From assembly GCA_937996685.1 (NCBI GenBank), contig CALKUP010000015.1, positions 7,900 through 71,899 of the forward strand: a stretch of 64,000 nucleotides of DNA. The letters run 5' to 3'. Both the position numbers and the translations under genes were made by a program. A model generated the notes under the pieces. The model was given only the letters and a program-made list of their open reading frames with translations. It was not told the DNA's origin and searched no databases. How positions within the stretch are numbered: the stretch's first letter is position 1; each line of letters opens with the position of its first letter. This document shows positions 5,342-55,109 of the stretch, in pieces. The DNA comes from an uncultured bacterium. GTDB lineage: Bacteria; Patescibacteriota; Patescibacteriia; UBA9570; XYC2-FULL-38-9.

Positions 5342-5714
5342 AGGAATAAATCTACCATATACATTTATATGTTCCAAGGATATTTATTTATTTGGTTACG
5401 CAAGTGCTTTGTTGAGACTGAAAGATATGCCATGTTAGTTGATATAACTGCATGTCCCTTCACGCAGAATTTGAAACTTTCCGCTTCTACTAAACATATA
5501 ACAATTCAGTCCGAACCTCATCCAGCAACCGACCGATGATAAGAAATGAACTTGAAGGGCATTGGCCGCTCAAGTGTTGTCTAAGGAAAATATAACCAAA
5601 GTTCTATAGAAAAACTCCGCTTCAAATGTAGATTTTTTTGATATAAAAAAAGGGTGACGAGGAGACGGCATCGACGAGCGCACAATTGCACTTGAAGTTG
5701 CCGCCCCCCGAGGC

Positions 5715-5960
5715 TCACTGCGGGACGCCGGGATTGGCGAGGTGGAACGCAAGCTTCACAACGAGAAGGCAGAGGATCATCGTCCCCAGACCACTCACCA
5801 TCCCACCCGCGCTGATGCTACCGAGCCTGTAGGACTTCGAACGGATGACGACCAAGCGACCGGGCTGCAGTGCCCCGATCACGCCGAAGATGGTCCCTGT
5901 GCCAAGACCAAGAGCCGCGCCGATCAGGCAGATCGGTTGTACGAGACCAAGGAGCTCCAT
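5715..5960 (-). CDS. small two-TM membrane protein, cassette A
   Basis: AAGGAGG SD, TTGACA-16-TAGGCT promoter, 3' hairpin plus U-tract; paralog of 9550..9765. Confidence 0.75.
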   Translation of the reverse strand: MELLGLVQPICLIGAALGLGTGTIFGVIGALQPGRLVVIRSKSYRLGSISAGGMVSGLGTMILCLLVVKLAFHLANPGVPQ

Positions 5961-6047
5961 GGCTTCCTCCTTTTGTAAGATGTCGCCTTGTTAAGTAAGC
6001 GACTACCATGGGTATTGCCAGCCTACCCCTAACAGCTGTTTTGTCAA
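5958..6047 (-). repeat. 90-bp promoter/leader repeated at 9763..9852
   Basis: Gapless alignment, about 71/90 identical by hand count. Confidence 0.9.
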
Positions 6048-6100
6048 CGACAACAAGAATGCCGTGGAACATTAATCCACGCTTCCTCAACAAGCCGAAC

Positions 6101-6478
6101 TCAATGATTGTGGTCTGGTGTAAAAAATGTTATTTCAAATCCTTCAGGGTCAGCTATACAAAACGATGTGTCCCCCCAATCATTTTTCCGTATTGGAAAA
6201 ATAACACTTTCATCATCCTTAAACTTTTCCCAGATTGCATGCACATTGGAAACCCGCAAAGAAATATCGTTGCTGTAGGCCGCTCCATCACTTTGATGCG
6301 CGTCAGATAAAAGCTCAATAATGCCACTCCCCGTATCAAACATTACACCGCGATGCGCAGGACCATCATTCCATTCTGTACGTACGGAAAATCCAAGTGT
6401 GTCAGCATAAAATGCCCGAACACGATCAAAATACTTTGGGTATAATTTTAAACGAAATTCTAAAACGTCAATTTTCAT
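6101..6478 (-). CDS. VOC/glyoxalase family protein
   Basis: AFYADTLGF...WGDTSFCIADPEG. Confidence 0.85.
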   Translation of the reverse strand: MKIDVLEFRLKLYPKYFDRVRAFYADTLGFSVRTEWNDGPAHRGVMFDTGSGIIELLSDAHQSDGAAYSNDISLRVSNVHAIWEKFKDDESVIFPIRKNDWGDTSFCIADPEGFEITFFTPDHNH

Positions 6479-6576
6479 AAGGGAATTCTACAGGTTCTTA
6501 CTTCGTCCAGCAACCAACCTCATGATAAAAAAGGATGTCCTTCAGAGGCATTTTTTTGGAGCGCACTGTGCCTCAC

Positions 6577-7587
6577 CTACATCACTGACGGCAATACATC
6601 TTTAAACTGCTTAAAATGTTGCAACGCCCGATCCTGCAGCATTCTCTCTACCTCATCATTTTCCGCTCCCTCCTGATTTACAAAACGAACCAATATTGCC
6701 TTGCTATTTCTTTTGAGCTCATCAATAACCTCCTGAATATCTTGAACATACTGAGTGATAATTTCTTTAGCTTCCTGGATAGAGCACTGTAATTCTGTCG
6801 CGATACTATTCACAGTATTTTCATCAATACTATCGATATTGATATCTTGAATAGATGTATTTTCAGTTAACATTGAAAAAAGATACCATTCCAATTTTGG
6901 TGAATCAAGATACGAACCAAACACACCGCCATATATCAAATCAATCTGCACCAACTCCGCGAGCAACCATTCCTTCTCAATGGGCTCGTTACTATAGATG
7001 CGCTCTATATCAAAATGCTCATTTTCAACAAGCAATGAAGTCTTCTCTTTTTCAGCGTAAATAGTGGGTGATATAAACGCATGTGCTTGTGGCATTGCCG
7101 CATACAAACGTTGTTCCGCTGTATGACACTCCTCCATCGCCTCTCTATACTCCACTTCTAAATCATATCCAATATTTCGTAGCAGGATTGGATTTTTCTT
7201 ACACGTCTCAATCTGCTCTGGCGTTGCATTCCGCGGATAGAGCACGCCAAAATTCAACACATATTCAAATTTATCCATAGCCGACATACGCATCGGTCGA
7301 CCGTCCTTTCCAACACCTTCATCGGAAGTCCATTCAAATCCTGGAATGACGTAATTATGTGCGTCAAGAAATGTAAAAATCTTTTTTCTTATGTGACTTA
7401 GTGCTGTTTTATATGGCTGCAGTTCTGTTTTCAGAGAGGCATCCCAATTCTCCATTGCACTTGCGTATTCCATATCATTGCTCACCTTCTGGTGTACGAC
7501 TGGATTATTCATTTCTTCCCGAAAAAAAGCCCATGTACTATCAGCTTTTTCAGAATCAAACGCAATATATTGTATATCTATACTCAT
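6577..7587 (-). CDS. hypothetical protein
   Basis: Long ORF, start taken at MSIDIQY; no motif recognised. Confidence 0.7.
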   Translation of the reverse strand: MSIDIQYIAFDSEKADSTWAFFREEMNNPVVHQKVSNDMEYASAMENWDASLKTELQPYKTALSHIRKKIFTFLDAHNYVIPGFEWTSDEGVGKDGRPMRMSAMDKFEYVLNFGVLYPRNATPEQIETCKKNPILLRNIGYDLEVEYREAMEECHTAEQRLYAAMPQAHAFISPTIYAEKEKTSLLVENEHFDIERIYSNEPIEKEWLLAELVQIDLIYGGVFGSYLDSPKLEWYLFSMLTENTSIQDINIDSIDENTVNSIATELQCSIQEAKEIITQYVQDIQEVIDELKRNSKAILVRFVNQEGAENDEVERMLQDRALQHFKQFKDVLPSVM

Positions 7588-7733
7588 AGATCGATTGTAG
7601 TTGAGCGGCAATGTACTGTAAAGGACGTCTTTAAGATAAAAAAATAATCTGAGAGCGATGCCTTGATTTTTTAGCTCCGTTATTGTACACCACACCTACC
7701 GCAGTTTTGATCTCAACAGACACGGAGGTTCAC

Positions 7734-8177
7734 ATGCCTATTGTCCGGACCCTGAAACCTCATTGCGGCTACACTCGCCTCATGCTCCACAACACGTGGC
7801 GCAAGGATTGTGGCTTGTACTGGTTCATCGTGTTGCAGCTCGAGGACGATCTCCTGATCATTCTCTCGAATACCGAAGGAGAGCTCGCTCCAACAATTCG
7901 TCAACTGGCTCACAAGGCCATTGAGATGGAAATGGAGCCAATGAAGACGGACTCGCTGTTCACCGACATAATGCGCATCAACCCCGAAGCGCTGCCTATC
8001 GTTGCGACCGGTGCCCTGCACGTGTACAAGAGCGTTCTAGAGTCATACGGCTCCGATCAAGAGCTTTGGGATCGACGCGTTCTCTGGGCGCCGCACTCCC
8101 TAAACACAATGCTTTTAGATGTGCAACTCAACGACGCTGTCCAGGCAGGGATCGAGGAATTCCTCTGCCAGGACTAG
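7734..8177 (+). CDS. hypothetical protein, cassette C
   Basis: GGAGGT SD before ATG 7734; GC-richer codons; terminator 8222..8247. Confidence 0.7.
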   Translation: MPIVRTLKPHCGYTRLMLHNTWRKDCGLYWFIVLQLEDDLLIILSNTEGELAPTIRQLAHKAIEMEMEPMKTDSLFTDIMRINPEALPIVATGALHVYKSVLESYGSDQELWDRRVLWAPHSLNTMLLDVQLNDAVQAGIEEFLCQD

Positions 8178-8309
8178 GCGCTACCGGTCATAAAAAATCA
8201 CAGCACAATTTACTGTCGTTTGCGGACCTGACCACTCCGCTTTTTTTCTTATTATGATTTTTTGCTTCTCAATTTTATCTAGACTATACTAAAAAAATCT
8301 ACATACACT

Positions 8310-8888
8310 ATGAAATATCAAACACCTCTCATTGCAACAACCACCTTTTTAGGAGTCATTGTTCTCATAGGAATCTATCAATATGCCTTTAACAGTGACG
8401 GTGATCTATTTGATGCGTTACAATCATCATCTGCCGTCGAAACAACGTTTCATGAAAATACAGACAGGATAAATCAAATTCATACAACTACCAAGGAAAC
8501 GAACCAGAGCTTTTATTTGCGACCATGGACAACAGGCTGCATCAACACCCTTGATACACAATGCGTAGAAAAATCAGCACTAGACAGCATTGGTTTGCTT
8601 GCCTTTAAAACCGATCCGAAATTCAAACAGGTAGAGCACCTGAAAGAGTTTGGTGAATCAACTTGGTTTACATTTGATGAGCGAAAACATTTTGATAAAC
8701 GTCGAGAAATTGGCATCGTTCTTGTAGACGACCCTGACTCTTTTATCAAAACATTGCACGACTCTCCTTTTTACGAAAACATCGATCAGCTCGACAAACA
8801 CATTACAGAACACCCAACCGCAACCAGTTACGCATTTGCCCGTATAGAAAATGGTGTATACGTTTTTTATCAATACACGCCATATTAG
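8310..8888 (+). CDS. hypothetical membrane-anchored protein
   Basis: N-terminal TM; TATACT upstream. Confidence 0.7.
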   Translation: MKYQTPLIATTTFLGVIVLIGIYQYAFNSDGDLFDALQSSSAVETTFHENTDRINQIHTTTKETNQSFYLRPWTTGCINTLDTQCVEKSALDSIGLLAFKTDPKFKQVEHLKEFGESTWFTFDERKHFDKRREIGIVLVDDPDSFIKTLHDSPFYENIDQLDKHITEHPTATSYAFARIENGVYVFYQYTPY

Positions 8889-9025
8889 TTCAGTGGATAT
8901 ACAGTTCTCTTTTTTTTATAACGAACCTACACTCTTCCCTGTCATTTCATATAGATTTATATGTCTCTGTATGCTTAAATACAGGTATTATTTAATATAC
9001 GTATTTATTCAATATTCTACACACT

Positions 9026-9397
9026 ATGGCGACAATAAATCCTTGGATCAATTTTAATGGCAATGCTGAAGAAGCATTTGATTTCTATCAATCAGTGTTC
9101 GGCGGCGAAGTAACAAAAGCAGAAAATGGAATGTTTATTTCTTTGCCGATTGGTAAAGAGAATCGCCTCATTGCCAATAATGTTCCACCAGAAATGGGCC
9201 GTGTGAATGAAAATGAAAATAGAAGCAAAATTGCAGTGAGCGCGGAAAGCAAAGAAGAAGCTGATAGAATTTTTAACGGCCTTTCAGCGGGCGGTGCTGT
9301 TGAAGTGCCAATGTCTGATGGCATGGGATTCTATATGGGGATGTTTCGAGATCAATATGGCATTGAATGGATTATTGAATACACACCAAATAACTAA
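9026..9397 (+). CDS. VOC family protein (PhnB-like)
   Basis: INPWINFNGNAEEAFDFYQSVFGG...GMFRDQYGIEW. Confidence 0.9.
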   Translation: MATINPWINFNGNAEEAFDFYQSVFGGEVTKAENGMFISLPIGKENRLIANNVPPEMGRVNENENRSKIAVSAESKEEADRIFNGLSAGGAVEVPMSDGMGFYMGMFRDQYGIEWIIEYTPNN

Positions 9398-9422
9398 CTC
9401 TTCAAAAGTAATAAAAGACTAC

Positions 9423-9452
9423 AAAAAATCCGCTGACTATGCGGATTTTTTT
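9423..9452. terminator. bidirectional intrinsic terminator
   Basis: AAAAAATCCGC-tgactat-GCGGATTTTTT between convergent genes. Confidence 0.8.
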
Positions 9453-9549
9453 ATACGATACAATAAGAAATAAGGACAGGAGACGACTATCTTCAAGCGC
9501 GTGTTGCACTGAAAGTTGTCGTCTCCGAAAGATCAGCTTTCTTGCAAAG

Positions 9550-9765
9550 CTAGAAGTACTGCAAGTAATTGAAGATGATCAGCCCGCACGAGATACTCAT
9601 CAACCCAGCTGTAAAGGCAACGGATATAATCTTGCCTAAAGGGTACGTTTGAGAGCCAATAGGCACCGGGACAGTACTCTGGATCATGACGTTGACGCTA
9701 AAAAGAGCAACATAAGACGTCATCAACCCGCCAATCACGCACAGGATCGCAGCAAGGATCGCCAT
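9550..9765 (-). CDS. small two-TM membrane protein, cassette B
   Basis: GGGAGG SD, TTGACA-16-TAGGTT promoter, 3' hairpin 9479..9526; paralog of 5715..5960. Confidence 0.75.
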   Translation of the reverse strand: MAILAAILCVIGGLMTSYVALFSVNVMIQSTVPVPIGSQTYPLGKIISVAFTAGLMSISCGLIIFNYLQYF

Positions 9766-9907
9766 GGTTTCCTCCCTTTGTACGATGTCGCTCTGTTGAG
9801 TAAGCGACGACCATGGATACTATAAACCTACCTTTTGTGGCTGTTTTGTCAATAAAAAAGGCTCCATACAAAAAACGTCACATACGGATTGACCAACCGT
9901 TTTTTTA

Positions 9908-10666: not shown

Positions 10667-10764
10667 AACAAATATATTTAGTATCAATACTCTTACAAGG
10701 GATATCCTAGCAAAAGGCTAAATCCTTCACAAGCAATCACCATAAACCAATTCTTCATGCAAGG

Positions 10765-14156: not shown

Positions 14157-17100
14157 CTATTTGCTTACAGCGAAAGTTCCGTTAGTCTTGAGCTTCCATG
14201 TGCGACTCACGCGTTTGCCTGATTTGCCATAGGTCACAGTCACTTGTTTCTTTTTTGTATTCACCGACAAGACTGGCTTTGATAAGTCGGTCACAGTAAG
14301 CGATTGTGATTGCTGTTTTGTGAGCGTATGCGCAGTTGTTAAACGCATTCCATAGACTCGCGCAGTCTTTCCTTTGACTGCTGCAATAAAGACTGAATCA
14401 TAACTATTGTATACCCGAGTCACAGCAATGCGATAATTTGCGCTTGTGTAGGCTGTTTTTCCAATTGTTTTTTTCGCTACTTGTACTCCATTTTTAAAGA
14501 CACGAACATCTTTACCGTTTGTTACAACAATACGCTTTTTATCTGTCGATAAGGCATATCGAAAATTTTTCGACGTTCCAAATGGTCTGAGTGTTGCAGT
14601 TGTTGTATCAGCATATGTCACTGTCAGCGCGGCACCACTTTGACGCACCGTCCGCACTGCTCCGTGATCTACCGGCGTTGTATCAACTGGCTCTGGAACA
14701 ACTTCAGGAGCGACAACCGTTACTGTGCGAGTCACTTCTGTTGCGGCATTTCCTGTACTATCTTGCACGTTATACCGCAATGTATATGTCCCAACAGTAT
14801 TCACATCAACGCTACCCGTTTGCACAATACTACTGGTGACCACACCCTGGACCGCATCTGTCGCTGTTGCTCCAGCGTCCGTATAACTATCACCTTGCGT
14901 GATTGTGACCGCGGAATTGCCAAGCAATGAAATCGTTGGTGCTGCCCGATCAAGTGTCACAGTAGACGCGACAGCTGATACTGTTGTATTTCCAAGTGCG
15001 TCTTGATACCGCAGTGTCACTGTGTACACACCGTCTGCCAAAGTTGATGCAGACGCAGAAGTAACATGGCTAGAAGTAAATAAATTTGAAAGTTGAAGCG
15101 TACTATTTACAGATTGCGTTGTATCCATCAACAACGTTGTTGAGCCGCTGGCATTATCAAATGACACTGAAATAGTGTTTGATTGTGGCCCTTCTGGAAG
15201 AGAATATTGCAATTGCAACGCGTTATTAAAACTACTGCTCGCAGGTGATGTGAGCGTCGGGGTTTGGGTTGTTGTATCAATAATAACACTCGTTGCAACA
15301 GCACTCGTTGCTGGATTATTACGACCATCACGATAACTAAGTGTCACAGTGTGTGTTCCGTCAGCAAGGACTGGCATCGCACTTGGCGTAATCGTATTGA
15401 TATTTGAAAGATTATCAAAATTTACTTGATTGCCACTATCTGCAGGATTAAACAAAAAATTCACTGACTGACTATTTTCCATTTGGAATACTACCGTGCC
15501 ACTGGTTGCTACATTCGTGAATGTGACACGCACGCTTCCGGCAAGTGGTGCTTCTGGAAGAGAATATTGCAGACGGACTCGATTCATCGATCCTGACCCT
15601 GGCGATGACAATGTTGGTGATTGCGTAACAGTGTCAACTGTAACCGTCGTTTGCGCTGCAACAGAAATATCCCCTTCATCATCCACGGAAAAAATACTGT
15701 AGTAATAAAGACGATCCAGCAAATCATTATCTGAACGTGTTGTTCCGGTCACACCACTCGCAACAGCTGAGCCATCCGTCACACTCGTCGGATACGCTGA
15801 TGTACTACGACGAATTGTCACTGACGAAAAATGCGGATCGGTTGAATTTGTCCACGCAAGGTTCACGTCATTCCCAACAGCTGTCGCAGTAAAAGCCGTC
15901 GGCGGAGTGGTATAGCCTAATTCGTACGCACCAATATCACAATTGGTATTTTGCGGGCGAGAAGTTTGCCGTGAATCTGTTATAAGAGCCGAACCAGCTG
16001 CATCTGTACATGACACAGGCGGGATAAGATTTAATGTATCACCAACTCCTGACAATGCGAGTGTTTGCACAAAACCTCCATTATTTGCCGGCACCGCTGT
16101 TGCCATGTAACTCGGTGGCACTGGATGATTGAATGAATCTCCTGTCACTGAGGTGATAAAACAATCTTCTCTTAATTCCCCAATATAATTATAGCCTTGT
16201 GATGTAAGGTTTCCTTGGCAATCCTCATAAAAAGGTGATGGCATTGGAGCAACAAAATTGGATGCAATAATGTTATTTTTCAGAATAACATTACTAAATC
16301 CCCCACTATAGACACCAGCTGCAATACCTGCATGATTATTTGTAAAGGTTGAAAACGCAATCACAATTTCTGGTGTATCACCTGTACTTGAATTGAATCC
16401 ACCCCCAGTATCAGATGCGGTATTATTATAAAACGTACCATTAGTAATCTGCATTGGCGTGCCAGCAAATACACCACCTCCAGCCACCGCTGTGTTCTCA
16501 ATAAAGGTGACACGATTCATAACAATTGGATTATTCCCTTCAGGCCCAGAACCAGAAAGACCTCCACCAGCATCTACCGCTGCTGTATTATTTGTAAACT
16601 CAACATCGGTGAGCGTATTGGTTGTTGTTGTGTTTGTATCAATAAACATACCACCGCCACTAGCAGCTGAGTTTCCAGAAATGATTGTACGACTGATATC
16701 AGATGTACAATCACCTGAAATTCCGATACCGCCACCAAACACTGTTTGCACCCCTGGATCAGCTGACATGTTGCCACTCACTGTCACATCCGTCAGTGTT
16801 ATATCCCCGGCTGCACAATAGATACCAGCGCCATACTGCGAAATAATCCCACTTGGGTTATCAAGGACACTATTTTGGATTGTCACATGTGAAAACACCA
16901 ATGAGCCCTCATTTAATACACCGCCACCATTTGCACTGGTCACTGAACTGTCATTCACAGTCACACCAGACATTGTCGCTCGCGCCCCGCTGGCAATATG
17001 AAAAGCACGGTCAAGATCATCTGAGTCAATAATGGTCGTTGCCATGTCAGCGCCAGTCACGGTTGTGAGGTCTGCATCAAGAAAGTCAAAATCACCCGTT

Positions 17101-17351
17101 ACATTCAAGTCTTCACCTGCTCCTGATCGTGTAATATGGTACGTATTTGCTGGCAACACAATCGTATCAACACCTCCACTATTTGCCGCAGTCACTGCTT
17201 CACGCAACGAACAATCGGAGTCACATGTACCGTCGGCTGTATCGGTATTTTTTGTGACTGTATACGTTGCGGCGTGTGCAACTGTTGGCGTCAATCCAAT
17301 AAGAACAAAGAAGAGAATTGATAACGCGCTACCATAAAATATTTTCAGCAT
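14157..17351 (-). CDS. large surface protein: CSLREA domain, Pmp-like beta-helix, FN3/Ig-like and DUF5011 domains, basic C-terminal domain
   Basis: Signal peptide, DCSLREAV, N.A..GGG repeats, CDIGAYE, YTDAGATATD. Confidence 0.85.
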   Translation of the reverse strand: MLKIFYGSALSILFFVLIGLTPTVAHAATYTVTKNTDTADGTCDSDCSLREAVTAANSGGVDTIVLPANTYHITRSGAGEDLNVTGDFDFLDADLTTVTGADMATTIIDSDDLDRAFHIASGARATMSGVTVNDSSVTSANGGGVLNEGSLVFSHVTIQNSVLDNPSGIISQYGAGIYCAAGDITLTDVTVSGNMSADPGVQTVFGGGIGISGDCTSDISRTIISGNSAASGGGMFIDTNTTTTNTLTDVEFTNNTAAVDAGGGLSGSGPEGNNPIVMNRVTFIENTAVAGGGVFAGTPMQITNGTFYNNTASDTGGGFNSSTGDTPEIVIAFSTFTNNHAGIAAGVYSGGFSNVILKNNIIASNFVAPMPSPFYEDCQGNLTSQGYNYIGELREDCFITSVTGDSFNHPVPPSYMATAVPANNGGFVQTLALSGVGDTLNLIPPVSCTDAAGSALITDSRQTSRPQNTNCDIGAYELGYTTPPTAFTATAVGNDVNLAWTNSTDPHFSSVTIRRSTSAYPTSVTDGSAVASGVTGTTRSDNDLLDRLYYYSIFSVDDEGDISVAAQTTVTVDTVTQSPTLSSPGSGSMNRVRLQYSLPEAPLAGSVRVTFTNVATSGTVVFQMENSQSVNFLFNPADSGNQVNFDNLSNINTITPSAMPVLADGTHTVTLSYRDGRNNPATSAVATSVIIDTTTQTPTLTSPASSSFNNALQLQYSLPEGPQSNTISVSFDNASGSTTLLMDTTQSVNSTLQLSNLFTSSHVTSASASTLADGVYTVTLRYQDALGNTTVSAVASTVTLDRAAPTISLLGNSAVTITQGDSYTDAGATATDAVQGVVTSSIVQTGSVDVNTVGTYTLRYNVQDSTGNAATEVTRTVTVVAPEVVPEPVDTTPVDHGAVRTVRQSGAALTVTYADTTTATLRPFGTSKNFRYALSTDKKRIVVTNGKDVRVFKNGVQVAKKTIGKTAYTSANYRIAVTRVYNSYDSVFIAAVKGKTARVYGMRLTTAHTLTKQQSQSLTVTDLSKPVLSVNTKKKQVTVTYGKSGKRVSRTWKLKTNGTFAVSK

Positions 17352-18989: not shown

Positions 18990-21900
18990 TTATTGTTTTT
19001 TCAATGCACCGCTTGATTGCACAAGCCATGTATATGATTGCTTTTTCTTGCCTGAACCAAAAGTGGTTGTGAGTTGTTTTTTCTTTACAGAGAACCCAAT
19101 ATTGAGTTTTGTATTACTTTGAATTTTGACTGTTTGAGCAGTTTTTTTCTTTAACCCATTCCCTGTTGTGAGCTGATGCGCAAAGACTGTTGCCGTCGTC
19201 TTTTTTGGAGCGATTGTGACAAAGACTGAGTCAAAATTCTTGTGCACTTTTCTGACAGAAAGTGTGTATTGTCCTTTTTGTACTGTTGCGTTTCCAAGTT
19301 TCGCTCGCGCAACCCGACGACTATTTGCAAACACGCGAATTTCTTTTCCGTTTGTCGCAACGATCCGTTTTTTATTACTTGATAACGTATAGAGAAAGTT
19401 TGCAGACGTTCCAAATGGTTGAATTGTCGCTGTTGTCGCATCACGATATGTCACAAGTAACTGGTTGTTGATTTTTTGTACAGTCGTAATGACTCCATCA
19501 TTTGTTGTTGTGACAGGTGGCGTTGTCGGAGTTTCTGTTGTCGTTCCTGGATCAGTAGCCGGCTCATCAACTGGACAACCCGTCGTCGTAAAGATCCCAG
19601 CATCTGATGTCGAGCGATTACCAGAAGTATCGGCGGATGACGCAGTATATTGATACGTTGTACATGCCGTGAGACCAGACAGCAATACAGCATGGCTGGT
19701 CACACGTGGCGCAAAGTCTACTTCTGCAGTTGTTGTCGTTGACCCGCCAACCGGACCATATGACACGCGACTTGATGACGCTTCATTCGTTGTCCATGTG
19801 ATAGTAGCTCCTGTTGTCGCTGGCGTTGCGCTCAACGCTGTAATAGCTGGGGGCGTACTATCATCCATGCCCCCAATAGACCACAGCTCTCGCCCATAGG
19901 CCTGGGATTGCGCAGTAAATACTGCTCCACCCCCAAAACCAAGTACCGTCGATGGATCGCTGCCCAATAGGCCTGGATTAATATCAGACAGCATGTATGT
20001 CCCGTTTGATGTTCCGTCTGAACGCCACAACTCTAGACCATGTGCTCCATCGTGTACTTGAAAATATAATATCCCATTGACTGCACTAAAATCACCCCAA
20101 CTCGAATTATTCGCACTTGTCACTTCTTTTACTTGAACTGTTCCTTCAGTTGTACCATCCGTTTTCCATAATTGGGGAAACCCAGATCCGTTATCGGCGG
20201 TAAAAAAGAGTGAACCGCCAACGATGGTTAAATTCCCTGGATAGCTATCACCTCCTGTGTTTTCATTGATATCTTTTACCAGCGCTGTTCCTTCTTCTGT
20301 TCCATTTGATTTCCAGAGCTCCGTGCCACCTTCATTACTATTGTATGCAGAAAAATACATCCAATCATTCAGCACAACCATACTGCTCGGCAAGGCACTG
20401 CAATCAGGACAGAGATCAACTGCGAGTACTGTTCCTTCAGTTGTGCCATCAGTCTTCCATAACTCATACTCATGAGAATCATCACTAGCAGTAAAATACA
20501 ACGTACCGTGATACTCAACAAATCCAAATGGACCACTGCCTGTACTGCCTGGGAATATATCTTTCACGAGCGTTGTTCCTTCTTCTGTTCCATTAGATTT
20601 CCACAATTCAAAACCATGAGCGCTGTCATATGCAGAAAAATATAACTCACTATTGTATGTAAATCCACCCTGGATATAGGACATTCCCTCTTCATTTACA
20701 TCTTTTACGAGCGCTGTTCCTTCGGTTGTACCGTCCGTCTTCCATAACTCGTAACTATGCGTTCCATCATCAGCGGTAAAATACAGAGCATTACCAACTA
20801 TCTTAAAATTATATGGATATGAATTATCAACTCCTGTAAAAATATCTTTTACCATTACTGTTCCTTCTTCAGTTCCATCAGTCTTCCATAGTTCGTAGCC
20901 ATGCGTTCCGTCATCAGCGGTGAAATATGTAACACCATCGAGGTAGATAAAACCGTATGGATAACTACTACCACTTGGACGAATATCTTTTAATAATTGC
21001 GTACCCTCTGCTGTGCCGTCTGATACATACACCTCTGCGCCAGTGGACGGATGTGACGCAACACCAATTAAGCGACTCCCTGCAACAATAAAATCTGCCA
21101 CACTTCCACCAGTTCCGCTGCTGTCATTTACTTCAGCGACCATGGAAAAATTATTTTCAGTGGTGCTAAATTTCCACAAACGTTGACCGCTGTCGCCATT
21201 GTCTCCGGCAAATAACAGATTCGTCCCATTTATCGTAAACCACTCTATGCCATCACCTGTTGGGTTCAGATCCTCAACCATCAATGTTCCTTCTTCAGTT
21301 CCATCAGTCTTCCATAGTTCATAGCCATGCGTTCCGTCATCAGCGGTGAAAAAGACCTGACCGTCTACAATAGTAAACATTCGTATATCCAGACTACGAT
21401 CACCTTCGTTAATATCTTTCACCAACGTTGTTCCTTCAGTTGTGCCGTCGGTCTTCCATAACTCGTAGCCATGCGTTCCGTCATTTGCAGCAAAAAATAA
21501 TGTTGAGCCAGTGCCAAAAAACATTCCCGGACTAGCATTTGCGCTGCCAGGATTAATATCTTTCACCACATAGGTTCCTTCATCAGTTCCATCAGTACGC
21601 CAGAGCTCAGAACCATTTGTACTATTTGTGAGCTGGTAATAACCAATGCCATTAAAACTATACACATCACCAATGGTAACTCCAGAGCCGATTGGTTCAA
21701 TGTTCTTAATCAAATATGTGCCACGAGCAGTTCCGTTTGTTCTCCATAACTCCCAACCATTTACACCATCATCAGCTGCAAACACCACTGTTCCATCCCC
21801 TATCTGAGTAAAGAAACAAGCATATGAACCATATGATCCCGCATTCACATCTTTCACCATACGTGTTCCGTTTGGCGTTCCATCAGTTTTCCATAACTCA

Positions 21901-30036: not shown

Positions 30037-30279
30037 ATGGAACGATGGCTCTTCTCCGGGGCTGCCGTGAGCGCACTCGCGCTCTGGCTGTCCCACTCCT
30101 GCCCTGGCGGCGTGACTGGCCTTCTGGTCACGCTTCTCGTCTCGGAGATCGGCGCTTTTGGCGTCAGCCTCCTTCCTTGGACCGACACGGAGCGTGAAGA
30201 CGCCGTGACCGGCCTCCGCAAGGTTGGGCGAATCTCCGCCCTGCCTTTCCTCCTCGCAAGAGGGTGGAGCCAGTCCTGA
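30037..30279 (+). CDS. small hydrophobic protein, cassette D
   Basis: GGGAGGT SD; GC-rich; long leader hairpin 29932..29988. Confidence 0.65.
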   Translation: MERWLFSGAAVSALALWLSHSCPGGVTGLLVTLLVSEIGAFGVSLLPWTDTEREDAVTGLRKVGRISALPFLLARGWSQS

Positions 30280-30357
30280 TCCGACTGGTGCGTTCTGTGA
30301 GGAAATCCTCGCCTGGCCACTGTGAAAACAGTGTGTTGGTCGAGGTTGTTTTTTTAT

Positions 30358-33074: not shown

Positions 33075-33915
33075 ACAACTGTGCATGCGCAATGGCGAGC
33101 TCATTTCTGCCGCTGACGCAGTGCTCCCAGTCGCAAATACAGAACTTGAATATGGTTTCGGGGTGTATGAAACCATTCGGATTGAAAATGGCATTGCGTA
33201 TTTTACTGCGCAGCATATTGATCGACTCTTCTATTCTGCGAATCACATCGGACTTGCACATCAATTTTCACAACAGCAAATCACTGAGCAGCTGAATACA
33301 TTTATTACTCAGGCTATTGCAGTCGCTCAAACCTGCAATATCAAAATCTTGTTTCTCGGCGCGGCAGACCCTGCTGATACACAACTCTATTTCTTTGCAT
33401 CTGCTCCACTCTTTGTTGACCGTAAGCTCTATAAAACCGGCTGTCATACTATAACGCACGCCTATGAACGGCCGTTTCCACAAGCCAAAACTCTCGCAAT
33501 GCTCGGCAGTTATTTGGCCTATCGAGAAGCGAAAAAAGCGGGAGCGTATGACGCCTTACTGCTCAATCGCAACAACGAAATTACTGAAGGCACCCGCACC
33601 AATTTTTTTGCTGTCAAAGGAAAAACCCTCTATCACCCACCGCAAAAAGAGATCCTTGAAGGAGTGACAAAACTTGTTCTGCAAGATATTGCGATTCAAC
33701 ATGGTTGGTCTATTATTGAGCACGAAATTTTGCATTCAGATATCAGCTCATACGACGGTGCATTCTTGACCAGCACCAGCACAAAAGTCTTACCTATTCA
33801 ATCGATCAATAACTTTTCATTTGAAACTATTGCTCCGGGTGTGCTCGAGCTTTCAACACTGTATCGTGAATACTGGACACACAGTCAGGGAATCCACAGA
33901 CAATCCGCTCTATAG
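33058..33915 (+). CDS. aminotransferase class IV (IlvE/PabC-like)
   Basis: YGFGVYET, H..RL, EG...N.F, ILEGVT. Confidence 0.9.
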   Translation: MNHSLEQLCMRNGELISAADAVLPVANTELEYGFGVYETIRIENGIAYFTAQHIDRLFYSANHIGLAHQFSQQQITEQLNTFITQAIAVAQTCNIKILFLGAADPADTQLYFFASAPLFVDRKLYKTGCHTITHAYERPFPQAKTLAMLGSYLAYREAKKAGAYDALLLNRNNEITEGTRTNFFAVKGKTLYHPPQKEILEGVTKLVLQDIAIQHGWSIIEHEILHSDISSYDGAFLTSTSTKVLPIQSINNFSFETIAPGVLELSTLYREYWTHSQGIHRQSAL

Positions 33916-33984
33916 TGTTTATTCTCTGTGGATAACACTAGATGTAGTAATTAAAAAACTATGTTATAGTGCTTGTACTATCGT

Positions 33985-34105
33985 TCTTTGCTCGAAGTTT
34001 GTCACCTTCTTTGCAACGGAAGTCTAGGTGTGATCCCTAGCGCTGACCCGCAACTGTAATATCGCCTTCACCAGAAGCGCGAATAAGCCAGGTCCAGTTC
34101 AAAGA
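33985..34105 (+). ncRNA. cobalamin riboswitch-like element
   Basis: AACGGAAG, CTAGG-TGTGATC-CCTAG T-loop arm, GCTGACCCGCAACTGTAA, AAGCCAG; closing TCTTTG/CAAAGA; TGnTATAGT promoter at 33962..33970. Confidence 0.75.
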
Positions 34106-34249
34106 TTTTTCTGACGTTTCTCGTGGAATAGAAACAGCGTATGTGAATATTTTTGATATTCCGGCTGTGCCCGGTTTTTTTGTTGCCAAAATTCGTTGAT
34201 GCCGCCACATTGACAAATCTTCGGAGCAAACAAACCAGGAGGTGCTCCT

Positions 34250-34753
34250 ATGAGGATGACGCGTAGAGAATTTTTGAGCGGACTGAGTTGCGCCGTGATT
34301 GCTGGCAGTATTGCGACCACCACTGGTTGCACTATCACCGGAAAGACGACTGAAGACCTTGTCATTCCAGGCGCACTGATCGCGAACGGAACGACCATCG
34401 AGAACGACACTCTTGCAGACCTCTTGGAGTGGTTGATTAAAACCGATGAGTTCACTCGCATTCGAGGACTCGTTGTCGCTGAATGTCCAGAACTCGAGAG
34501 CATTGAAAATCTGGGCGAACACACGCGACTGCCCGCAGGACTCGAAATCACCTTCCGGTACGTTCAGGCGATGAAGATTGTCCGAGGAGACAACCTCTCT
34601 GGCCAGACGGTCGGCGACATCCGCCGTGAACACAACGCAAACGTGATCATCGTCAACAACGGCAATGCCCTGGAACTCAATGATGCGGAGCCGGTCTACT
34701 CTGACGACTGGATCGTCATCAATCCTGGAGAATCAAGTCGCAATAGTACCTGA
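34250..34753 (+). CDS. twin-arginine-signal putative lipoprotein with degenerate LysM-like repeats, cassette E
   Basis: TRREFL, TTGC lipobox-like, NDTLAD and RGDNLS; AGGAGGTG SD. Confidence 0.7.
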   Translation: MRMTRREFLSGLSCAVIAGSIATTTGCTITGKTTEDLVIPGALIANGTTIENDTLADLLEWLIKTDEFTRIRGLVVAECPELESIENLGEHTRLPAGLEITFRYVQAMKIVRGDNLSGQTVGDIRREHNANVIIVNNGNALELNDAEPVYSDDWIVINPGESSRNST

Positions 34754-34908
34754 CGCAAACAACACCACCAGCACAATGGTTCAACAATCTCGAGAATGAG
34801 AGCGTGAATTTGAGTGCTGGTTATTTTTTTGACAGCACAGTGTTTTCTTTTTTTATTATAAATATCCGATTCATTGACAATCAAGCGCTATTTACGTACA
34901 ACTGATAC

Positions 34909-45217: not shown

Positions 45218-45327
45218 ATGTAAATAAGAAAAAAAGCAGGTGGTCAGTCTGCTTTGTGTGCCGAGCTCCCCGTCGTGGGAACTCGAACGTTTTTATTTAT
45301 TGACCGTTGTCGTCTTGAATCGCTGTT

Positions 45328-46011
45328 TCAGCGAGACAAAATGACGCGACCCAGGCCTATGAAGAGGACTTCACACGCATGAACAGCGAGTTGCTGGCCA
45401 GCGTAGATCTCTTCGTGAGCCCGTGGATCAGTCCTCCGCCGCTCAAGCACATCTTGCAGCGCGAGCCGTGCTGCAGTTGCATGATCGATCTCCGCTCCGA
45501 CGTGGAGGTCGAAGTAGCGACGCGGCTCGTCAGGCACGTTGCTTCGAATCAAGGCCGCGGCCAGGATCCCGTGCGTCATGCCGGCGATGTACTCGAGAGT
45601 GACGTGAAATCCAATTGCCTTCCACGGACTCGCAACGTCGCTCCACACCTTGAGCGCGAACTCTGAGAACGCCTTGACCTCAGGCGTGGCATCACTGTTT
45701 GCGAGATCAGCGCCAATCCAGTCGACGAATGTCTTGAGAAGAATGTCGTGCGACTGCGCAACATCCCCACCACCGAACTCTTCCGCGATCTCGTGCGTGA
45801 CGCGTGACAGATAGCCCGCATCGAAGTCGAACAGAGTCATCGGCAGATGCAGGAGCGCGAGCTTGTGTCCGCGCACCGTGTGCCACCACTGGCCGGCGAA
45901 CAACCGGAGCTGCTCAACGGTCAGAGGCCCTCCGGCTTCCAAATGCCGCAGAAACTGAACATGTCTCACCTTCTCCGCTGCAATCAACGGATCGAATACG
46001 AAGATCTGCAT
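45328..46011 (-). CDS. heme-oxygenase-like diiron oxidase (CADD/PqqC/TenA fold), cassette F
   Basis: EE.G....SH, TLE, YFDLH..AE.DH; TAAGGGAGG SD. Confidence 0.75.
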   Translation of the reverse strand: MQIFVFDPLIAAEKVRHVQFLRHLEAGGPLTVEQLRLFAGQWWHTVRGHKLALLHLPMTLFDFDAGYLSRVTHEIAEEFGGGDVAQSHDILLKTFVDWIGADLANSDATPEVKAFSEFALKVWSDVASPWKAIGFHVTLEYIAGMTHGILAAALIRSNVPDEPRRYFDLHVGAEIDHATAARLALQDVLERRRTDPRAHEEIYAGQQLAVHACEVLFIGLGRVILSR

Positions 46012-46022: not shown

Positions 46023-46595
46023 TTAATCCATGTCTCGTTGTAATTCACTTTCGGTCTTTTTGACGACCAGAAAGCAGCACGCTTCTCTCCATTTATTGAG
46101 ATAATCAGAAACGTGAAGAATGCTTTCACCGAACGGCCTATGGATATGTCCGCAGTACGCACGACCGTACGTATCTCGGCAGACCGAGCCCAAGGCAACG
46201 ACAGGAAAGCGCCGCACCACATTGGGGTGCTGCTCTGCGAGACAGAGCATTTCTGCCATGGTCCCAGGCCTATAGCCTTGTGCCCCAATGTTGGCCAAAG
46301 CCATCGGAGTTTCCGTCTCCTGCTCAAACTTCATGAGTTCAACAGTGACAACAACCTCCCCCTCACAACGATGAGGGAAGGTAGCCTCATTTATGTCTGA
46401 GGAATACACCCTAGCTGCAGCTGCCATTTGCGCGATAGTCAACCTGTAGTCGATGGACAGTAAAAAAGCATTTCCGAACTCAGGCTCAGGAGTGGCAACT
46501 CCATTCAGAAACACCTGCAACTTCGCACGAGTGACGAAGCCAGAATGAATCTGCGCGAACAGCTCCTCCATCTGCTCAAAGGTAGGCTTGCTCAT
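46023..46595 (-). CDS. hypothetical protein, cassette F
   Basis: GYRPGTMAEML..FPVVALGS; GGGAG SD; GC-richer. Confidence 0.7.
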   Translation of the reverse strand: MSKPTFEQMEELFAQIHSGFVTRAKLQVFLNGVATPEPEFGNAFLLSIDYRLTIAQMAAAARVYSSDINEATFPHRCEGEVVVTVELMKFEQETETPMALANIGAQGYRPGTMAEMLCLAEQHPNVVRRFPVVALGSVCRDTYGRAYCGHIHRPFGESILHVSDYLNKWREACCFLVVKKTESELQRDMD

Positions 46596-49959: not shown

Positions 49960-49985
49960 ACGCTTAACAATCAAAATATACCGAT

Positions 49986-50972: not shown

Positions 50973-51118
50973 AAAAACCATTCAATAATACCTCTATTTT
51001 ACTATAAAAATGGCCCTTCGTCAATAAAAAAAGGCCCCGAAACAGCAACGCGACGTTGTCTGCTATTCCGAGACCGTGGACGTGAGCCCTCCGCTGCACC
51101 CTCTTCGACGAAGCGCGG

Positions 51119-51496
51119 CTAGGCCGCTTCTGGCAGCTCCGGCGGATCTTCGTCTTCATCTGAGAAGTCCTCGCCGATCGTCCAGCCAAGTGACCCCAGG
51201 AACGCCTGGCACCACTTTCGAGCGGCGGCGCAGGTCAATGCGGCGGCGCCGGTTTTATCTCCTTCTGCCGGAAGGCGAAACACAACCTGGATGGAAATCC
51301 GTTCTCCTTCAGGTGAAATGATCCACAGTCCTGGCCCACCCGGTGACGACGGAGTAATAACAGCGTACGAAATGCCGTCAAGAACTCCTTCTGCGACCCG
51401 ATAGTGACGCAGGTGAACCAACTTCTCTCCATCATGCCAAGTGATCACCTGCGAAGAACGCGCACCCTGATATACATCGATTCGATTGGTCCCCAT
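51119..51496 (-). CDS. hypothetical protein, cassette G
   Basis: GGAG SD, TTGTCA-17-TAGGTT promoter, GC-rich, acidic tail. Confidence 0.65.
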   Translation of the reverse strand: MGTNRIDVYQGARSSQVITWHDGEKLVHLRHYRVAEGVLDGISYAVITPSSPGGPGLWIISPEGERISIQVVFRLPAEGDKTGAAALTCAAARKWCQAFLGSLGWTIGEDFSDEDEDPPELPEAA

Positions 51497-51602
51497 GACT
51501 CGTTTCTCCGTGCGTGAATGTGCATACTCTAACCTATCAAACGATGCGTCATTTGACAATCACCTATTGCACATAGTTTTCAGAGGTGTATACTAGCGCT
51601 AT

Positions 51603-52163
51603 ATGTCACTCGGGAAACTCGAACAACTGATCATGAACCACATTTGGGAGCACTACGCTGACACGCCTTTTACTGTCCGTGACGTGACAGCAACACTCAC
51701 CCGAGAATGCGGCACTGAATACGCCTACAACACGATTCTCACCGTTGTCACCCATTTATTTCAAAAGGAATTACTCCTTCGCCGCAAGATCGGCAAAACC
51801 TGCGTCTACCGAATAGCGGTTTCAAAAAACGACTACGTTGAATTGCTGAGCAAAAAAGTATTCACTGACATGAAAAAGCAATACGGTAAAATCGCTGTTG
51901 CCCATTTTGCCAATCTCGTTGATAGCCTTGATTCAAAAACACTGAAATCCGCACGCGACTATATCAAACAACATCAACTCGCTTTTTTTCTTGGACTTGC
52001 CAGCGCTCTCCTCTTTTTACAAACCCCTGTCCTGGCTGATGTTCGTGATTTCTTTTTTGTCGACTCCCAAGAAACCTGCACCGCCACTGCCGGACAATCC
52101 CACGAGGTTCAATCTCGTAATCTGAAACTACAAAGCCACGAAACTCCTGGGCGTTGTAGTTAA
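51603..52163 (+). CDS. BlaI/MecI/CopY-family repressor with C-terminal hydrophobic extension
   Basis: LGKLEQ.IM..IW, TVRDV, AYNTI.TV. Confidence 0.85.
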   Translation: MSLGKLEQLIMNHIWEHYADTPFTVRDVTATLTRECGTEYAYNTILTVVTHLFQKELLLRRKIGKTCVYRIAVSKNDYVELLSKKVFTDMKKQYGKIAVAHFANLVDSLDSKTLKSARDYIKQHQLAFFLGLASALLFLQTPVLADVRDFFFVDSQETCTATAGQSHEVQSRNLKLQSHETPGRCS

Positions 52164-52244
52164 CAAGACGCACGATTGTCTTGCACATATTTTCAAAATC
52201 AACTATCCTATATAGGTGATTAATTAAACAATATTTTATTTCGT

Positions 52245-53027: not shown

Positions 53028-53130
53028 GCAACCCTCGTTCAATACAGAAAAGCCCGGATCTTCCGGGTTTTTTGTTTGACAGTTTTGCGCCAGTCTGAAA
53101 AGATGCGCGCACAACCACAAGGGGTGTCCT

Positions 53131-53814
53131 TTGAACAATCCTGAAATCTCGTCCTCCCAGCCCAACACTCGCTTCCAGCGGTTCGCCGCCTGGTACAGCA
53201 ATGCGATCAACAAGCTGGTTCCGGCACACTGGTCACCGAACATGTTGACGTTGCCGCGTGTGCCGCTGGCCTATATCGCGATTGGATTCTTCTCGTTCGA
53301 CTACTTCATCGCGGCGTTCATCGCGGCCTGTCTGGTGGACGTCACGGACTTCGTCGATGGCATCATCGCCCGGTCGCGCAATCAAGTGACGACCTTCGGC
53401 AAGTTCTTCGACCCGATCGCTGATGCGCACGGTCGCTGGATCTTGTTTTTCGGTCTCTGGCATTACGCCGGAGTCGGACACGTCAGCATGATCCTCGGAA
53501 TCTTGTTCCGTGACATGGCGATCGCGTTTCTGCGCCAATACGCAGCGAGCACCAACACAGTTCTCGCAGCCCGAGACAGCGGTAAACTGAAGGCTGTTGT
53601 CCAGTGGATCTGCACAGATACCATGTTCGGCCTCATTGCGATCTACGGTACAGAGAACCCCATTGTCTGGCGCATTGTCACAACCTTGATGGGGATTTCA
53701 GCAGCCATTTCGCTGTGGTCGCTCGTTGAGTACACGACCGCTTACCGGTCACTGCTCTCAGACGGCTTCTGGGACCGGAAACCGCAAGACACCAACGAGA
53801 ACGGTCAGGTATAA
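53131..53814 (+). CDS. CDP-alcohol phosphatidyltransferase (PgsA-like), cassette H
   Basis: PN.LT..R, D..DG.IAR....T.FG...D..AD, GK.K; TTG start after AAGGGGTG. Confidence 0.88.
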   Translation: MNNPEISSSQPNTRFQRFAAWYSNAINKLVPAHWSPNMLTLPRVPLAYIAIGFFSFDYFIAAFIAACLVDVTDFVDGIIARSRNQVTTFGKFFDPIADAHGRWILFFGLWHYAGVGHVSMILGILFRDMAIAFLRQYAASTNTVLAARDSGKLKAVVQWICTDTMFGLIAIYGTENPIVWRIVTTLMGISAAISLWSLVEYTTAYRSLLSDGFWDRKPQDTNENGQV

Positions 53815-53967
53815 ATCGGCAACAAGCAGGGTGTGCCACAACAGCTGCCCGCCCGCCTATCGCCGATTTCCTTTTTCTATTACAACACACAATCTTCAAG
53901 TACCATTTCACCGCAAACAAAAAACCCGGAACATGTCCGGGCTTTTGTATCTATGTGATTGAAGCTA

Positions 53968-54798
53968 TTAGTCAACAGTTTCAACGTATTCGATCAGTGT
54001 ACCTGAACCCATGCCGAGTGCGTATGCTGCACTTTTACCTTGTTGCATGATTTCGAGGAATCGTTTTTCACCCATACCAGATGATCCGATTGTGAATGCC
54101 ACAGTGTTATCTGGGATATCCTTCAAACGGTTGTAGCATGGCAAACGAAGTTGTTTGTTTGGTCCAACACGGACAATTACATTCTTCCCAACTTCAAAGT
54201 TTACTTCTTCTGGCAAGATGTTTGTCTTCAAGTTACCGAATGAATCAACCCAACATACTGCATTTGGGATGAGTGGCACTTGTGTGAATGTATCTGTTTT
54301 TGGCAGTTGTTCACCAGCCATGATATGAGCCGCAAGTCGTGGCAAATAGTCAAAACTACGGAACTGCGTGTTAATAATGTGCTCTTGCTTTTCTGGACTC
54401 AATCCTTGCATGTGTGGCACAACAGATGGAATGTCATAAATATCAACAGTGATATCATGATCAAGCAACTTTTGCACAAGACTTAAGATATATCCATCAA
54501 TGGTTGTAAAAATATCCAATTCACCGATTCGGAAATGACCGAATGGAGTACCGTTTGGCCATTTTTTCGCATGACCTTCGCGACGAGCAACGTTTGCAAG
54601 GATAACGCCAGGAGCGCCATCATACGCATCAATCATATCAACTAAGTTGATTGCCGCTTCAATATCATCGCGGACACCAACAAACGTGATGTTGCTATCT
54701 TTAAAGAGAGTTGCAACACGTGATTTTAAACGACCTTGTGTATTATCATCTCGGCAATCCGAAATGTATACAACGGGGTGGGAGTAGTTTTCAACCAT
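53968..54798 (-). CDS. SAM hydroxide adenosyltransferase family (DUF62)
   Basis: ISD, QFRS, VDSFGN.KTN, GSSG...LEI, SAA..LG. Confidence 0.75.
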   Translation of the reverse strand: MVENYSHPVVYISDCRDDNTQGRLKSRVATLFKDSNITFVGVRDDIEAAINLVDMIDAYDGAPGVILANVARREGHAKKWPNGTPFGHFRIGELDIFTTIDGYILSLVQKLLDHDITVDIYDIPSVVPHMQGLSPEKQEHIINTQFRSFDYLPRLAAHIMAGEQLPKTDTFTQVPLIPNAVCWVDSFGNLKTNILPEEVNFEVGKNVIVRVGPNKQLRLPCYNRLKDIPDNTVAFTIGSSGMGEKRFLEIMQQGKSAAYALGMGSGTLIEYVETVD

Positions 54799-54943
54799 AG
54801 GATGAAAAAATGTTAAGTGTTAAGTTCTTTTAGGCACTAATGATAGCACAAAACAACTCTTTTTTCAAGTCCTGCCCCCAAAGCACTATAAAATCACAGG
54901 ATTTAATAAGAAAAGGGTCGAAACGCTTGAGGAGATCCGAAGA

Positions 54944-55030
54944 TCAATCTTCAAGCTGCTCAACCAACGCGGTCAACGCGGCGATTGCCGCCAGAACGAG
55001 CACAACCACTGCGGTCCGTACCAGATCCAT
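54944..55030 (-). CDS. 28-aa single-TM peptide, cassette I
   Basis: MDLVRTAVVVLVLAAIAALTALVEQLED*; GGAGGTGA SD; TTGCTT-17-TAGGGT promoter; below ORF-track cutoff. Confidence 0.6.
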   Translation of the reverse strand: MDLVRTAVVVLVLAAIAALTALVEQLED

Positions 55031-55109
55031 GACTCACCTCCAATGTCACCCTACAGAACAATTGACGGAAAAGCAAGGATTATGTATAGTATTCGAGCTA
55101 GATTGATTT

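Follow-up and report, generated by a model that had tools for sequence, protein, structure and literature searches.

Shine-Dalgarno-led single-gene frames with changing cargo among Shine-Dalgarno-less core genes of a Patescibacteriota genome

Phage morons are single extra genes with a promoter and terminator of their own and an atypical composition, lying between conserved genes. Integron cassettes are units the size of one open reading frame (ORF), led by a Shine-Dalgarno site (SD), in which swappable cargo is followed by a folded element. Here we describe SD-led cassettes in a 64,000-nt stretch of DNA (the window) from an uncultured bacterium of the Patescibacteriota, and in the rest of its genome. 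This combination of an SD-less core and an SD-led class of genes (the SD class) is genome-wide here, present across the bacterial class to which the organism belongs, and more organised than random horizontal gene transfer (HGT). The window is C15:7900-71899 of an 18-contig, 1,142,207-bp genome with a completeness of 98.7% (G000), which was compared with a member of the same genus (G001; 1.02 Mb of about 1.1 read), with G002, and with further genomes of the bacterial class, cited by G-number. Judged by ValS, its nearest named relatives belong to the Patescibacteria, Ca. Kerfeldbacteria and Magasanikbacteria among them.

Like morons, the cassettes have predicted promoters and terminators of their own, are atypical in composition and sit between conserved genes; unlike morons, they are chromosomal and dispersed, and the frame is kept while the ORF changes. 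No prophage location was found, the flanks being syntenic housekeeping genes on nine contigs, in a comparison made without a phage-library scan. They differ from integron cassettes in having predicted promoters and terminators, in being mostly single, and in lacking attC sites or an integron-type recombinase context: attC sites (RYYYAAC...GTTRRRY) occur in 0 of 92 trailers, and the sole tyrosine recombinase, flanked by NYN-like and CCA-adding-like genes (named by eye), is housekeeping-like rather than in an IntI-like setting. An earlier analysis of the window (the sequence-only reading) had seen no integrase nearby; one XerC/D-like recombinase, at C15:7118-7639, is encoded just outside its left end, amid housekeeping genes. 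A likeness to diversity-generating retroelements (DGRs) concerns one cargo family only, F2, whose homologues in G001 and G008 have the template and variable repeats typical of DGRs, with adenine-specific differences, beside a reverse transcriptase (RT); the target in G000 stands without an RT, and none was found in that genome. In the two DGRs (L309, G001:C9:19672-23283; L310, G008:C6:122172-125783) the target is SD-led and rich in GC at third codon positions, and the adjoining RT is SD-less, with GC3s (GC at synonymous third positions) of 0.41-0.44.

The gene starts recall group C of GeneMarkS-2, characterized by frequent leaderless transcription and a Pribnow box about 10 nt before many first genes (PMC6028130). 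Here too a -10 box lies close to many gene starts and SD-led genes coexist with them, but the SD is found almost solely in a stand-alone accessory class of distinct composition, and ribosomal-protein operons are SD-less. With the SD-blind Bacteroidia the genome shares an intact anti-SD, SD-less ribosomal-protein genes and a strong SD before rpsU (24/29 genomes), whereas about 9% of genes carry SDs here and the C-terminus of bS21 looks basic. We found no description of this architecture in a literature search on SD and leaderless initiation in Patescibacteria and on the rpsU SD in Parcubacteria, which left most subscription papers and the supplements outside its scope.

Genes were called with two purpose-written callers, both of which favour SD-bearing starts, and therefore the key SD test was run on the first ATG, chosen blind to the SD. 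Strong SDs are those that pair with the genome's own 16S tail at -7 kcal/mol or below; the 3' end of that 16S, inspected as the sequence-only reading had proposed, is canonical, with its anti-SD intact (GGATCACCTCCTTTCT). Of the 40 tRNA genes listed by ARAGORN, those called as Ser(act) and Ile(tat) are unusual, and none is for Phe. Small contigs (C3, C4, C8, C10-13, C17, C18) were excluded from most class counts, the exceptions being one count on all contigs and the cross-genome comparison of rpsU SDs and class GC3, made on contigs over 15 kb. Four of them (C8, C11, C12, C17) are atypical in composition (GC 0.49-0.56) and possibly contamination.

The GC content at synonymous third positions (GC3s) is bimodal genome-wide, with components at 0.36 (weight 0.91) and 0.64 (weight 0.09), and two Gaussians fit much better than one (Bayesian information criterion -2060 vs -1621; n=945 genes). 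This check had been named beforehand; a continuous distribution was not seen, and GC3s is bimodal in G001 as well. At SD-blind starts, a strong SD precedes 24 of 63 genes with GC3s of 0.55 or more and 28 of 845 with GC3s below 0.5 (odds ratio 18, p=2e-16), merely 14 genes falling between 0.5 and 0.55; internal ATGs have one in 6-8% of cases in both GC3s classes. A refined call yielded 110 candidate SD-class ORFs (62 kb), spread over nine large contigs. The best 89 form 72 units, 57 of which hold a single gene, and the median gap upstream of class units is 220 nt, against 60 nt in the comparison. U-tract ends of the TTTT(T/C)TTATT type follow 31% of the class (7% of the comparison), and TTGAC is found upstream of 46/86 class first genes, with a TAnnnT at a 17-nt spacer in 12 of them (predicted promoters). 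The claim that the untranslated regions are structured holds for the 3' side (median folding z of trailers -2.9) and less so for the 5' side (leaders just -0.8). Third-position A is depleted more than T in the class (0.094 vs 0.187), and transmembrane (TM) content is alike in class and core (0.40 vs 0.36). Ribosomal proteins, EF-Tu and GroEL are SD-less with a low GC3s (0.25-0.45), which rules out an explanation of high GC3 by strong expression; insertion at tRNA sites is ruled out as a general rule by the 9 of 89 class ORFs that lie within 600 nt of a tRNA.

The core has another start format. Eight core starts of the window had been cited as closely preceded by a -10 element, and seven of them (28107, 28766, 31845, 43361, 51603, 61360, 62446) have TATACT 6-12 nt before the ATG and no strong SD; the eighth, 34909, has no TAnnnT hexamer upstream. 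Genome-wide, 181 of 681 long ORFs have a -10-like hexamer no more than 19 nt from one of their first six candidate starts, compared with 98 of 4832 internal ATGs, the two denominators being of different kinds, and the spacing peaks at 6-8 nt. An adjacent -10 was seen at 0 genes with GC3s above 0.6. Many core starts are thus likely leaderless or short-leader, as predicted from these hexamers. Two giant secreted repeat proteins of the window (18990-25397, 2135 aa with ELWxxDGT-like repeats; 14157-17351, 1064 aa) have core-tier composition.

The frames around the SD-class ORFs are conserved where the ORFs are not. Leaders and trailers are 73-99% identical around ORFs without detectable similarity, in comparisons inside G000 as well as across genomes. 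The match of the clearest pairs stops 0-6 nt from the ATG and restarts 1-30 nt past the stop: C15:132933 and 134656 have flanks 93% and 94% identical, the match ending at -4/-6 and resuming at +1/+12; C1:227608 and its G001 counterpart are 95% identical, with the match ending at -4/-3 and resuming at +2/+2; C2:103780 and 105719 are 87% identical as far as the ATG. Other pairs lose the match up to ~130 nt from the ATG or regain it up to ~60 nt past the stop. In 11 of the pairs with like flanks and dissimilar ORFs, the ORFs score z -1.4 to 2.2 (nucleotide) and -0.7 to 2.1 (protein), compared with 13-79 and 24-177 in four true orthologue pairs used as a control. Long core DNA matches between 42100 and 62000 are 69-83% identical, and a protein match in G001 exists for 14/107 class genes vs 669/873 core genes. 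Assembly chimeras as the source of the frames are ruled out, since the same frames occupy syntenic slots in G001 and G002.

With bimodal GC3s and flanks common to different ORFs within and between genomes, the proposal of a separate expression class rather than random HGT stands as far as the frames are concerned, which are organised; the cargo is partly horizontal and, in the case of MetK, recent. Near-identical recent transfers without common flanks, which that proposal had named as speaking against it, are not what was seen. Some ORFs in the same frame differ grossly in family or length (Kup vs a different 498-aa protein; 271 vs 491 aa), which points to replacement, while similar lengths or residual similarity (34% between cassettes A and B, 30% in a GAPDH-like pair) point to fast change in place. 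The G000 member of the latter pair, at C1:116928-118025, is a degenerate cassette in the same frame as its G001 counterpart and stands beside a separate native GAPDH-like gene. No class-wide motif emerged, de novo enrichment of 5- and 6-mers yielding promoter-like words only. A boxA-like box common to the leaders was rejected, as its rates match those of core upstream regions (e.g. 3/85 vs 11/299), and so was a pairing of leader with trailer, at -30.3 for own pairs and -30.0 for cross pairs (median rank 0.46, n=91). Rho was found in 0 and NusB in 20 of 21 genomes, and comEC in 5/5.

Within the window, all ten SD-led starts of the sequence-only reading were found at the positions given there, pairing with the genome's own 16S tail at -6.6 to -14.7 kcal/mol. 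Most are strong, as had been stated, that of G (-6.6) being a weak one; the start codon of H is TTG. The cassettes are indeed richer in C/G-ending codons (GC3s 0.53-0.75; 48 core genes of the window, median 0.37, maximum 0.52). Own promoters, claimed for most, are predicted for A, B, G and I; the promoter pattern gave no site for C, D or E. Cassette A (5641..6047, minus strand) has a predicted promoter TTGACA-16-TAGGCT (6047-6020), a leader, an SD (AAGGAGG) and an 81-aa ORF with two TM segments (5715-5960), followed by a trailer hairpin (z -3.9) and U-tract. Cassette B (9470..9852, minus) has a predicted promoter at 9852, the SD GGGAGG and a 71-aa ORF, again with two TM segments (9550-9765), and its trailer hairpin (z -4.1) resembles that of A. 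Promoter and leader of A and B, the leader being common to both, are 79% identical over 100 nt, and the ORFs are distant paralogues (34% over 61 aa). The region 3681-9900, after tRNA-His, is a variable island, ~11 kb longer in G001, where it includes the DGR of that genome.

Cassette C (7734..8255, plus; SD GGAGGT) encodes a 147-aa orphan (7734-8177) and its trailer ends in TTTTTTTCTTATT; its orthologue in G002 is 77% identical in amino acids, and the trailer 85% identical starting at the stop. Cassette D (30037..30357, plus; SD GGGAGGT) consists of an 80-aa hydrophobic ORF (30037-30279) with a trailer hairpin and U-tract; SD and leader are retained at its orthologues in G001 (54%, GC3s 0.80) and G002 (46%). 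Hairpins had been claimed for most cassettes: they are found after A, B, D and G (z -2.6 to -4.1), and the trailer of I lacks a stable one (-2.3). Cassette G (51024..51559, minus; predicted promoter TTGTCA-17-TAGGTT, SD GGAG, trailer hairpin) encodes a 125-aa orphan (51119-51496), and its slot in G001 holds a different SD-led ORF of 74 aa (GC3s 0.69) on the opposite strand. Cassette I (54906..55076, minus; predicted promoter TTGCTT-17-TAGGGT, SD GGAGGTGA) encodes a 28-aa hydrophobic peptide (54944-55030), with syntenic 31-aa counterparts in G001 and G002 (SD -14.9). The description of the cargo as mostly membrane peptides was overstated, just A, B, D and I (4/10 ORFs) being small and hydrophobic.

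Cassette E (34250..34830, plus; SD AGGAGGTG) comprises a 167-aa lipoprotein (34250-34753) with a twin-arginine-type signal, and a trailer. Its leader contains a cobalamin-riboswitch-like RNA (33991..34138, plus; RF01482, 34.3 bits, E 0.0013), which matches the full length of the model and misses its cut-off of 50 bits. The leader stretch (33902-34275) is 93% identical in G001, where the syntenic protein is 36% identical and retains the TRR and the lipobox GC. Full-length homologues of E beyond G000 and G001 were not found among 1.84 billion representatives, and its predicted fold is of low confidence (predicted local distance difference test score 48). Unit F, on the minus strand, holds F2 (46023..46595; SD-led, 190 aa), of a family widespread in this bacterial class, and F1 (45224..46011 with the unit's trailer), an SD-led heme-oxygenase-like iron redox enzyme (45328-46011; PF14518, E 6e-15) with one other homologue (84%) among the matches listed. 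F2 homologues occur in 68/301 genomes of the bacterial class at a median pairwise identity of 32%; many of them (L280-L308) have tandem short CTTGG/CTTTG units right after the stop, which are absent after the F2 of the window. Cassette H (53048..53946, plus; SD AAGGGGTG, TTG start) encodes a PgsA-like CDP-alcohol phosphatidyltransferase (53131-53814) that matches PF01066 yet stays under the pgsA cut-off. It was not found in G001 or G002; its slot in G001 holds a tsaD-like gene. Terminator-like palindromes flank H (53048-53078 and 53914-53946; 91% identical over 33 nt), and a third copy lies at C1:62718.

Outside the window, 22 of 65 class proteins have Pfam matches, among them PurA, MetK, GuaB1, Ham1, UppS, two Kup, NhaB, a GAPDH-like protein, hydrolases and four MopE-motif proteins. 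MetK shares 97, 94 and 94% identity with three unnamed proteins and 84% with one labelled Myxococcota, while its identity to those of relatives does not exceed 62%. In a quick 57-row tree it nests among rows from outside the candidate phyla radiation (CPR), with an SH-aLRT (approximate likelihood-ratio) support of 96; judged by these matches, it is xenologous and recent. The metK genes of order-level relatives are mostly SD-less and core-type, and those at family level SD-led; G008 has its own, SD-led, with GC3s 0.92 on a long branch (0.97; L216), and that of G004 is SD-led with GC3s 0.31, also on a long branch (0.65; L205). H, whose nearest Atlas clusters are mostly Myxococcota (0.93, 0.91), and the four MopE-motif proteins also indicate a Myxococcota-like donor, so that the cargo looks likely to have been captured from a GC-rich, Myxococcota-like source. 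PurZ was rejected as the identity of the purA cassette.

The retention of an SD may be understood from the start regions. Over the first 45 coding bases, the folding energy is -7.5 kcal/mol in cassettes and -3.1 in the core, and SD-less initiation is reported to need an unfolded start (PMC3121790), so that a GC-rich ORF would need an SD in this lineage. Native genes use strong SDs too: a pilin-like gene (by eye; C1:93736-94113) has low GC3 and an SD of -17.6 kcal/mol, the same in G001; a lysine-rich histone-like protein (by eye; C2:38028-38273) has low GC3 and an SD of -14.9; and the rpsU SD reaches -14.3. Among the best 30 of 48 rpsU matches in 61 genomes, the SD is strong in 24 of the 29 genomes with a start found, vs 11 of 75 neighbours; values are mostly -12 to -18, often with GTG or TTG starts. 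In Flavobacterium, bS21 helps to occlude the anti-SD and rpsU is part of an SD circuit (PMC7797042, PMC9976891). With the anti-SD intact and pilin-like, histone-like and rpsU genes using strong SDs, a host ribosome is not required, and translation of the cassettes in the cell itself is most likely.

We favour, with a probability of roughly 0.55, a reading in which the genome uses two formats: an SD-less, probably for the most part leaderless core, and some 70 frames with conserved edges, whose captured cargo is replaced or diverges and which are read by the cell's own ribosomes. A frame would consist of a predicted promoter, a leader with a strong SD, the ORF, and a hairpin-U trailer. By natural competence the cell would take up DNA of a GC-rich donor, Myxococcota-like and plausibly its host, which would recombine into an existing frame; frames and cargo would also duplicate and move among Patescibacteria. 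New cargo would arrive at a GC3 of ~0.9, drift toward core composition and diverge into orphans. Selection would keep the SD, since the folding of GC-rich start regions would stand in the way of SD-less initiation; each unit would need an intrinsic terminator of its own because Rho is missing, and cassette mRNAs would be read by the cell's own ribosomes.

Whether the high GC3 is a legacy or is maintained bears on this two-format reading, and the evidence is mixed. For eight well-aligned syntenic pairs, the stricter set, decay toward core composition fits better (log-likelihood difference, dlnL, -6.1; 1/30 simulations reached that value), with ancestors at 0.86-0.90 GC and 0.6 of core divergence; across fits the ancestral GC is 0.86-0.93, which matches the values of metK (0.86) and purA (0.87). 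Pfam-recognisable cargo is GC3-richer than orphans (GC3s 0.69 vs 0.64; n=23, 50; p=0.003), as ageing of cargo predicts. For syntenic orthologues decay thus fits no worse than a maintained optimum, and GC-richness mostly marks origin. Elsewhere it varies: in G035 (about 90 kb) the SD class is AT-richer than the core (GC3 0.34 vs 0.43, n=8), class and core are level in G284, the class is the richer one in G230, G088, G003 and G005, and G182 has two low-GC3 SD genes; across 8 genomes class GC3 is unrelated to core GC3 (rho 0.05). The SD and the stand-alone format therefore define the class; GC-richness, a mark of it here and reversed in G035, is not its defining trait.

Several observations weigh against the two-format reading. 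A GC-rich equilibrium beats decay by the core process once pairs of low identity are counted in (dlnL +24, 0/100 simulations), a result driven by pairs of 28-36% identity, and it is also favoured when two relocated pairs join the eight (dlnL +5.6, 0/30 simulations). Against decay alone, F2 is SD-led in 27 of its 30 best loci (21/30 at SD-blind starts) and, outside its variable end, GC3-richer than 1-5 SD-less neighbours in 26/30 (median +0.21), with which its GC3 is uncorrelated; its nearest clusters are patescibacterial (Minisyncoccota in Atlas). The placement of MetK rests on a quick tree search, and a metagenome search for the donor MetK locus gave at best 76% identity among the matches listed. 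Most single-gene transfers described in PMC12455944 are between Patescibacteria, at ~900 bp, and its available text makes no mention of Myxococcota. Several swapped pairs have similar lengths (97/92, 105/110, 143/135 codons); E, A/B and the GAPDH-like pair appear to have diverged in place, and some of the apparent swaps may instead be cases of extreme divergence. PurA, UppS and the Tat-type signal are, as far as gene content indicates, without a partner pathway in this cell, and the mechanism leaves the junctions near start and stop codons unexplained.

That last gene set is what a reading of the frames as a host-addressed transcriptome would explain. Here the symbiont would transcribe the frames, and their RNA (or DNA) would pass to the host and be read there, as phage auxiliary metabolic genes are, with SD and codon usage tuned to the host; the genes, captured from the host lineage, would be translated on host ribosomes and reprogram host nucleotide, lipid and ion metabolism, while the cell's own bS21 ribosomes would largely ignore SDs. 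Such host-side expression seems to us unlikely. PurA is above its cut-off without a PurB-family lyase in the genome; uppS, present in 1/21 genomes, stands without FPP synthase, IspG or HMG-CoA reductase, none of which was found; degenerate duplicates exist of native GAPDH, GuaB and PgsA; and E keeps its TRR and lipobox at 36% identity though TatC was not found in 40/41 genomes, this one included. The independence of class from core GC3 and its inversion in G035, and a strong rpsU SD as in SD-blind Bacteroidia (PMC7797042), agree with it too. But the Tat case is 1/110 ORFs, and E, with its conserved motif, falls under any Tat-model cut-off; Lgt, LspA and GuaA are present and a class II B12-dependent NrdJ is above cut-off; the riboswitch-like leader would tie E to the cell's own B12 need. 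SDs also precede the native pilin-like, histone-like and rpsU genes, whose products the cell has to make itself; recent capture or scavenged substrates would likewise account for enzymes without partners, and neither a class-wide export motif nor boxA enrichment nor leader-trailer pairing was seen. The GC3 of F2 does not significantly track that of the SD class (rho 0.40, p 0.32, n=8, excluding G018 with its one SD gene; 0.17 with G182, which has two). We know of no route of RNA transfer that would serve it. A programme gated by bS21 keeps translation in the cell: mature ribosomes would read SDs poorly, and a subpopulation lacking bS21, perhaps one life stage, would translate rpsU, pilin and cassettes. 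The rpsU counts suggest it, no listed ribosomal-protein, EF-G or EF-Tu start reaches -7, and the same circuit is described in Flavobacterium (PMC7797042, PMC9976891). The occluding residues are phylum-specific there, however (bS21 Tyr54 and a weakly basic tail, bS18 Phe50, Asn56, a bS6 extension; PMC7797042), and the bS21 C-termini here are strongly basic by eye (unaligned to Flavobacterium), without Tyr at the Bacteroidia position, while a pattern search for bS18 and bS6 gave neither; GC3 and the swapped ORFs would be left unexplained. This programme is compatible with the two-format reading rather than exclusive of it, and on its own we consider it doubtful.

Two further explanations do without organised capture. 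Ordinary HGT islets, unselected, keeping the donor SD and decaying, would fit the recent xenologue MetK, the decay of the eight syntenic pairs and the high turnover; flanks common to unrelated ORFs, often better conserved than core genes, largely refute them, and SDs persist as proteins fall to 36%, ORFs remain intact and F2 is SD-led across the bacterial class, which makes islets very improbable. The other possibility is that nothing is captured, and that a process raising GC, for instance adenine mutagenesis by an RT, drives the hyper-diversification of resident genes where they stand. It is favoured by the divergence in place of E, A/B and the GAPDH-like pair, by the similar ORF lengths in several slots, by the depletion of third-position A beyond T and by the role of F2 as a DGR target. 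G000, however, has no RT, MetK is plainly foreign, the class is AT-rich in G035, and cassette orthologues that align well diverge at four-fold sites by 0.31-0.67, not clearly more than the core does (0.54); we regard this, too, as a slim prospect.

The SD class offers a sequence-only route to fast-changing, probably interaction-related genes of Patescibacteria, which callers trained on core genes overlook or put in the wrong frame. The donor of its cargo, Myxococcota-like here, gives a host prediction for lineages without a known host, and the rpsU signature extends the regulatory pattern of Bacteroidia to this bacterial class. Gene capture by ORF-sized turnover within conserved frames, without a dedicated recombinase, would be a route not described before. 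If the frames were read on host ribosomes, this would be the first case known to us of a bacterium expressing genes inside another without a phage or plasmid.

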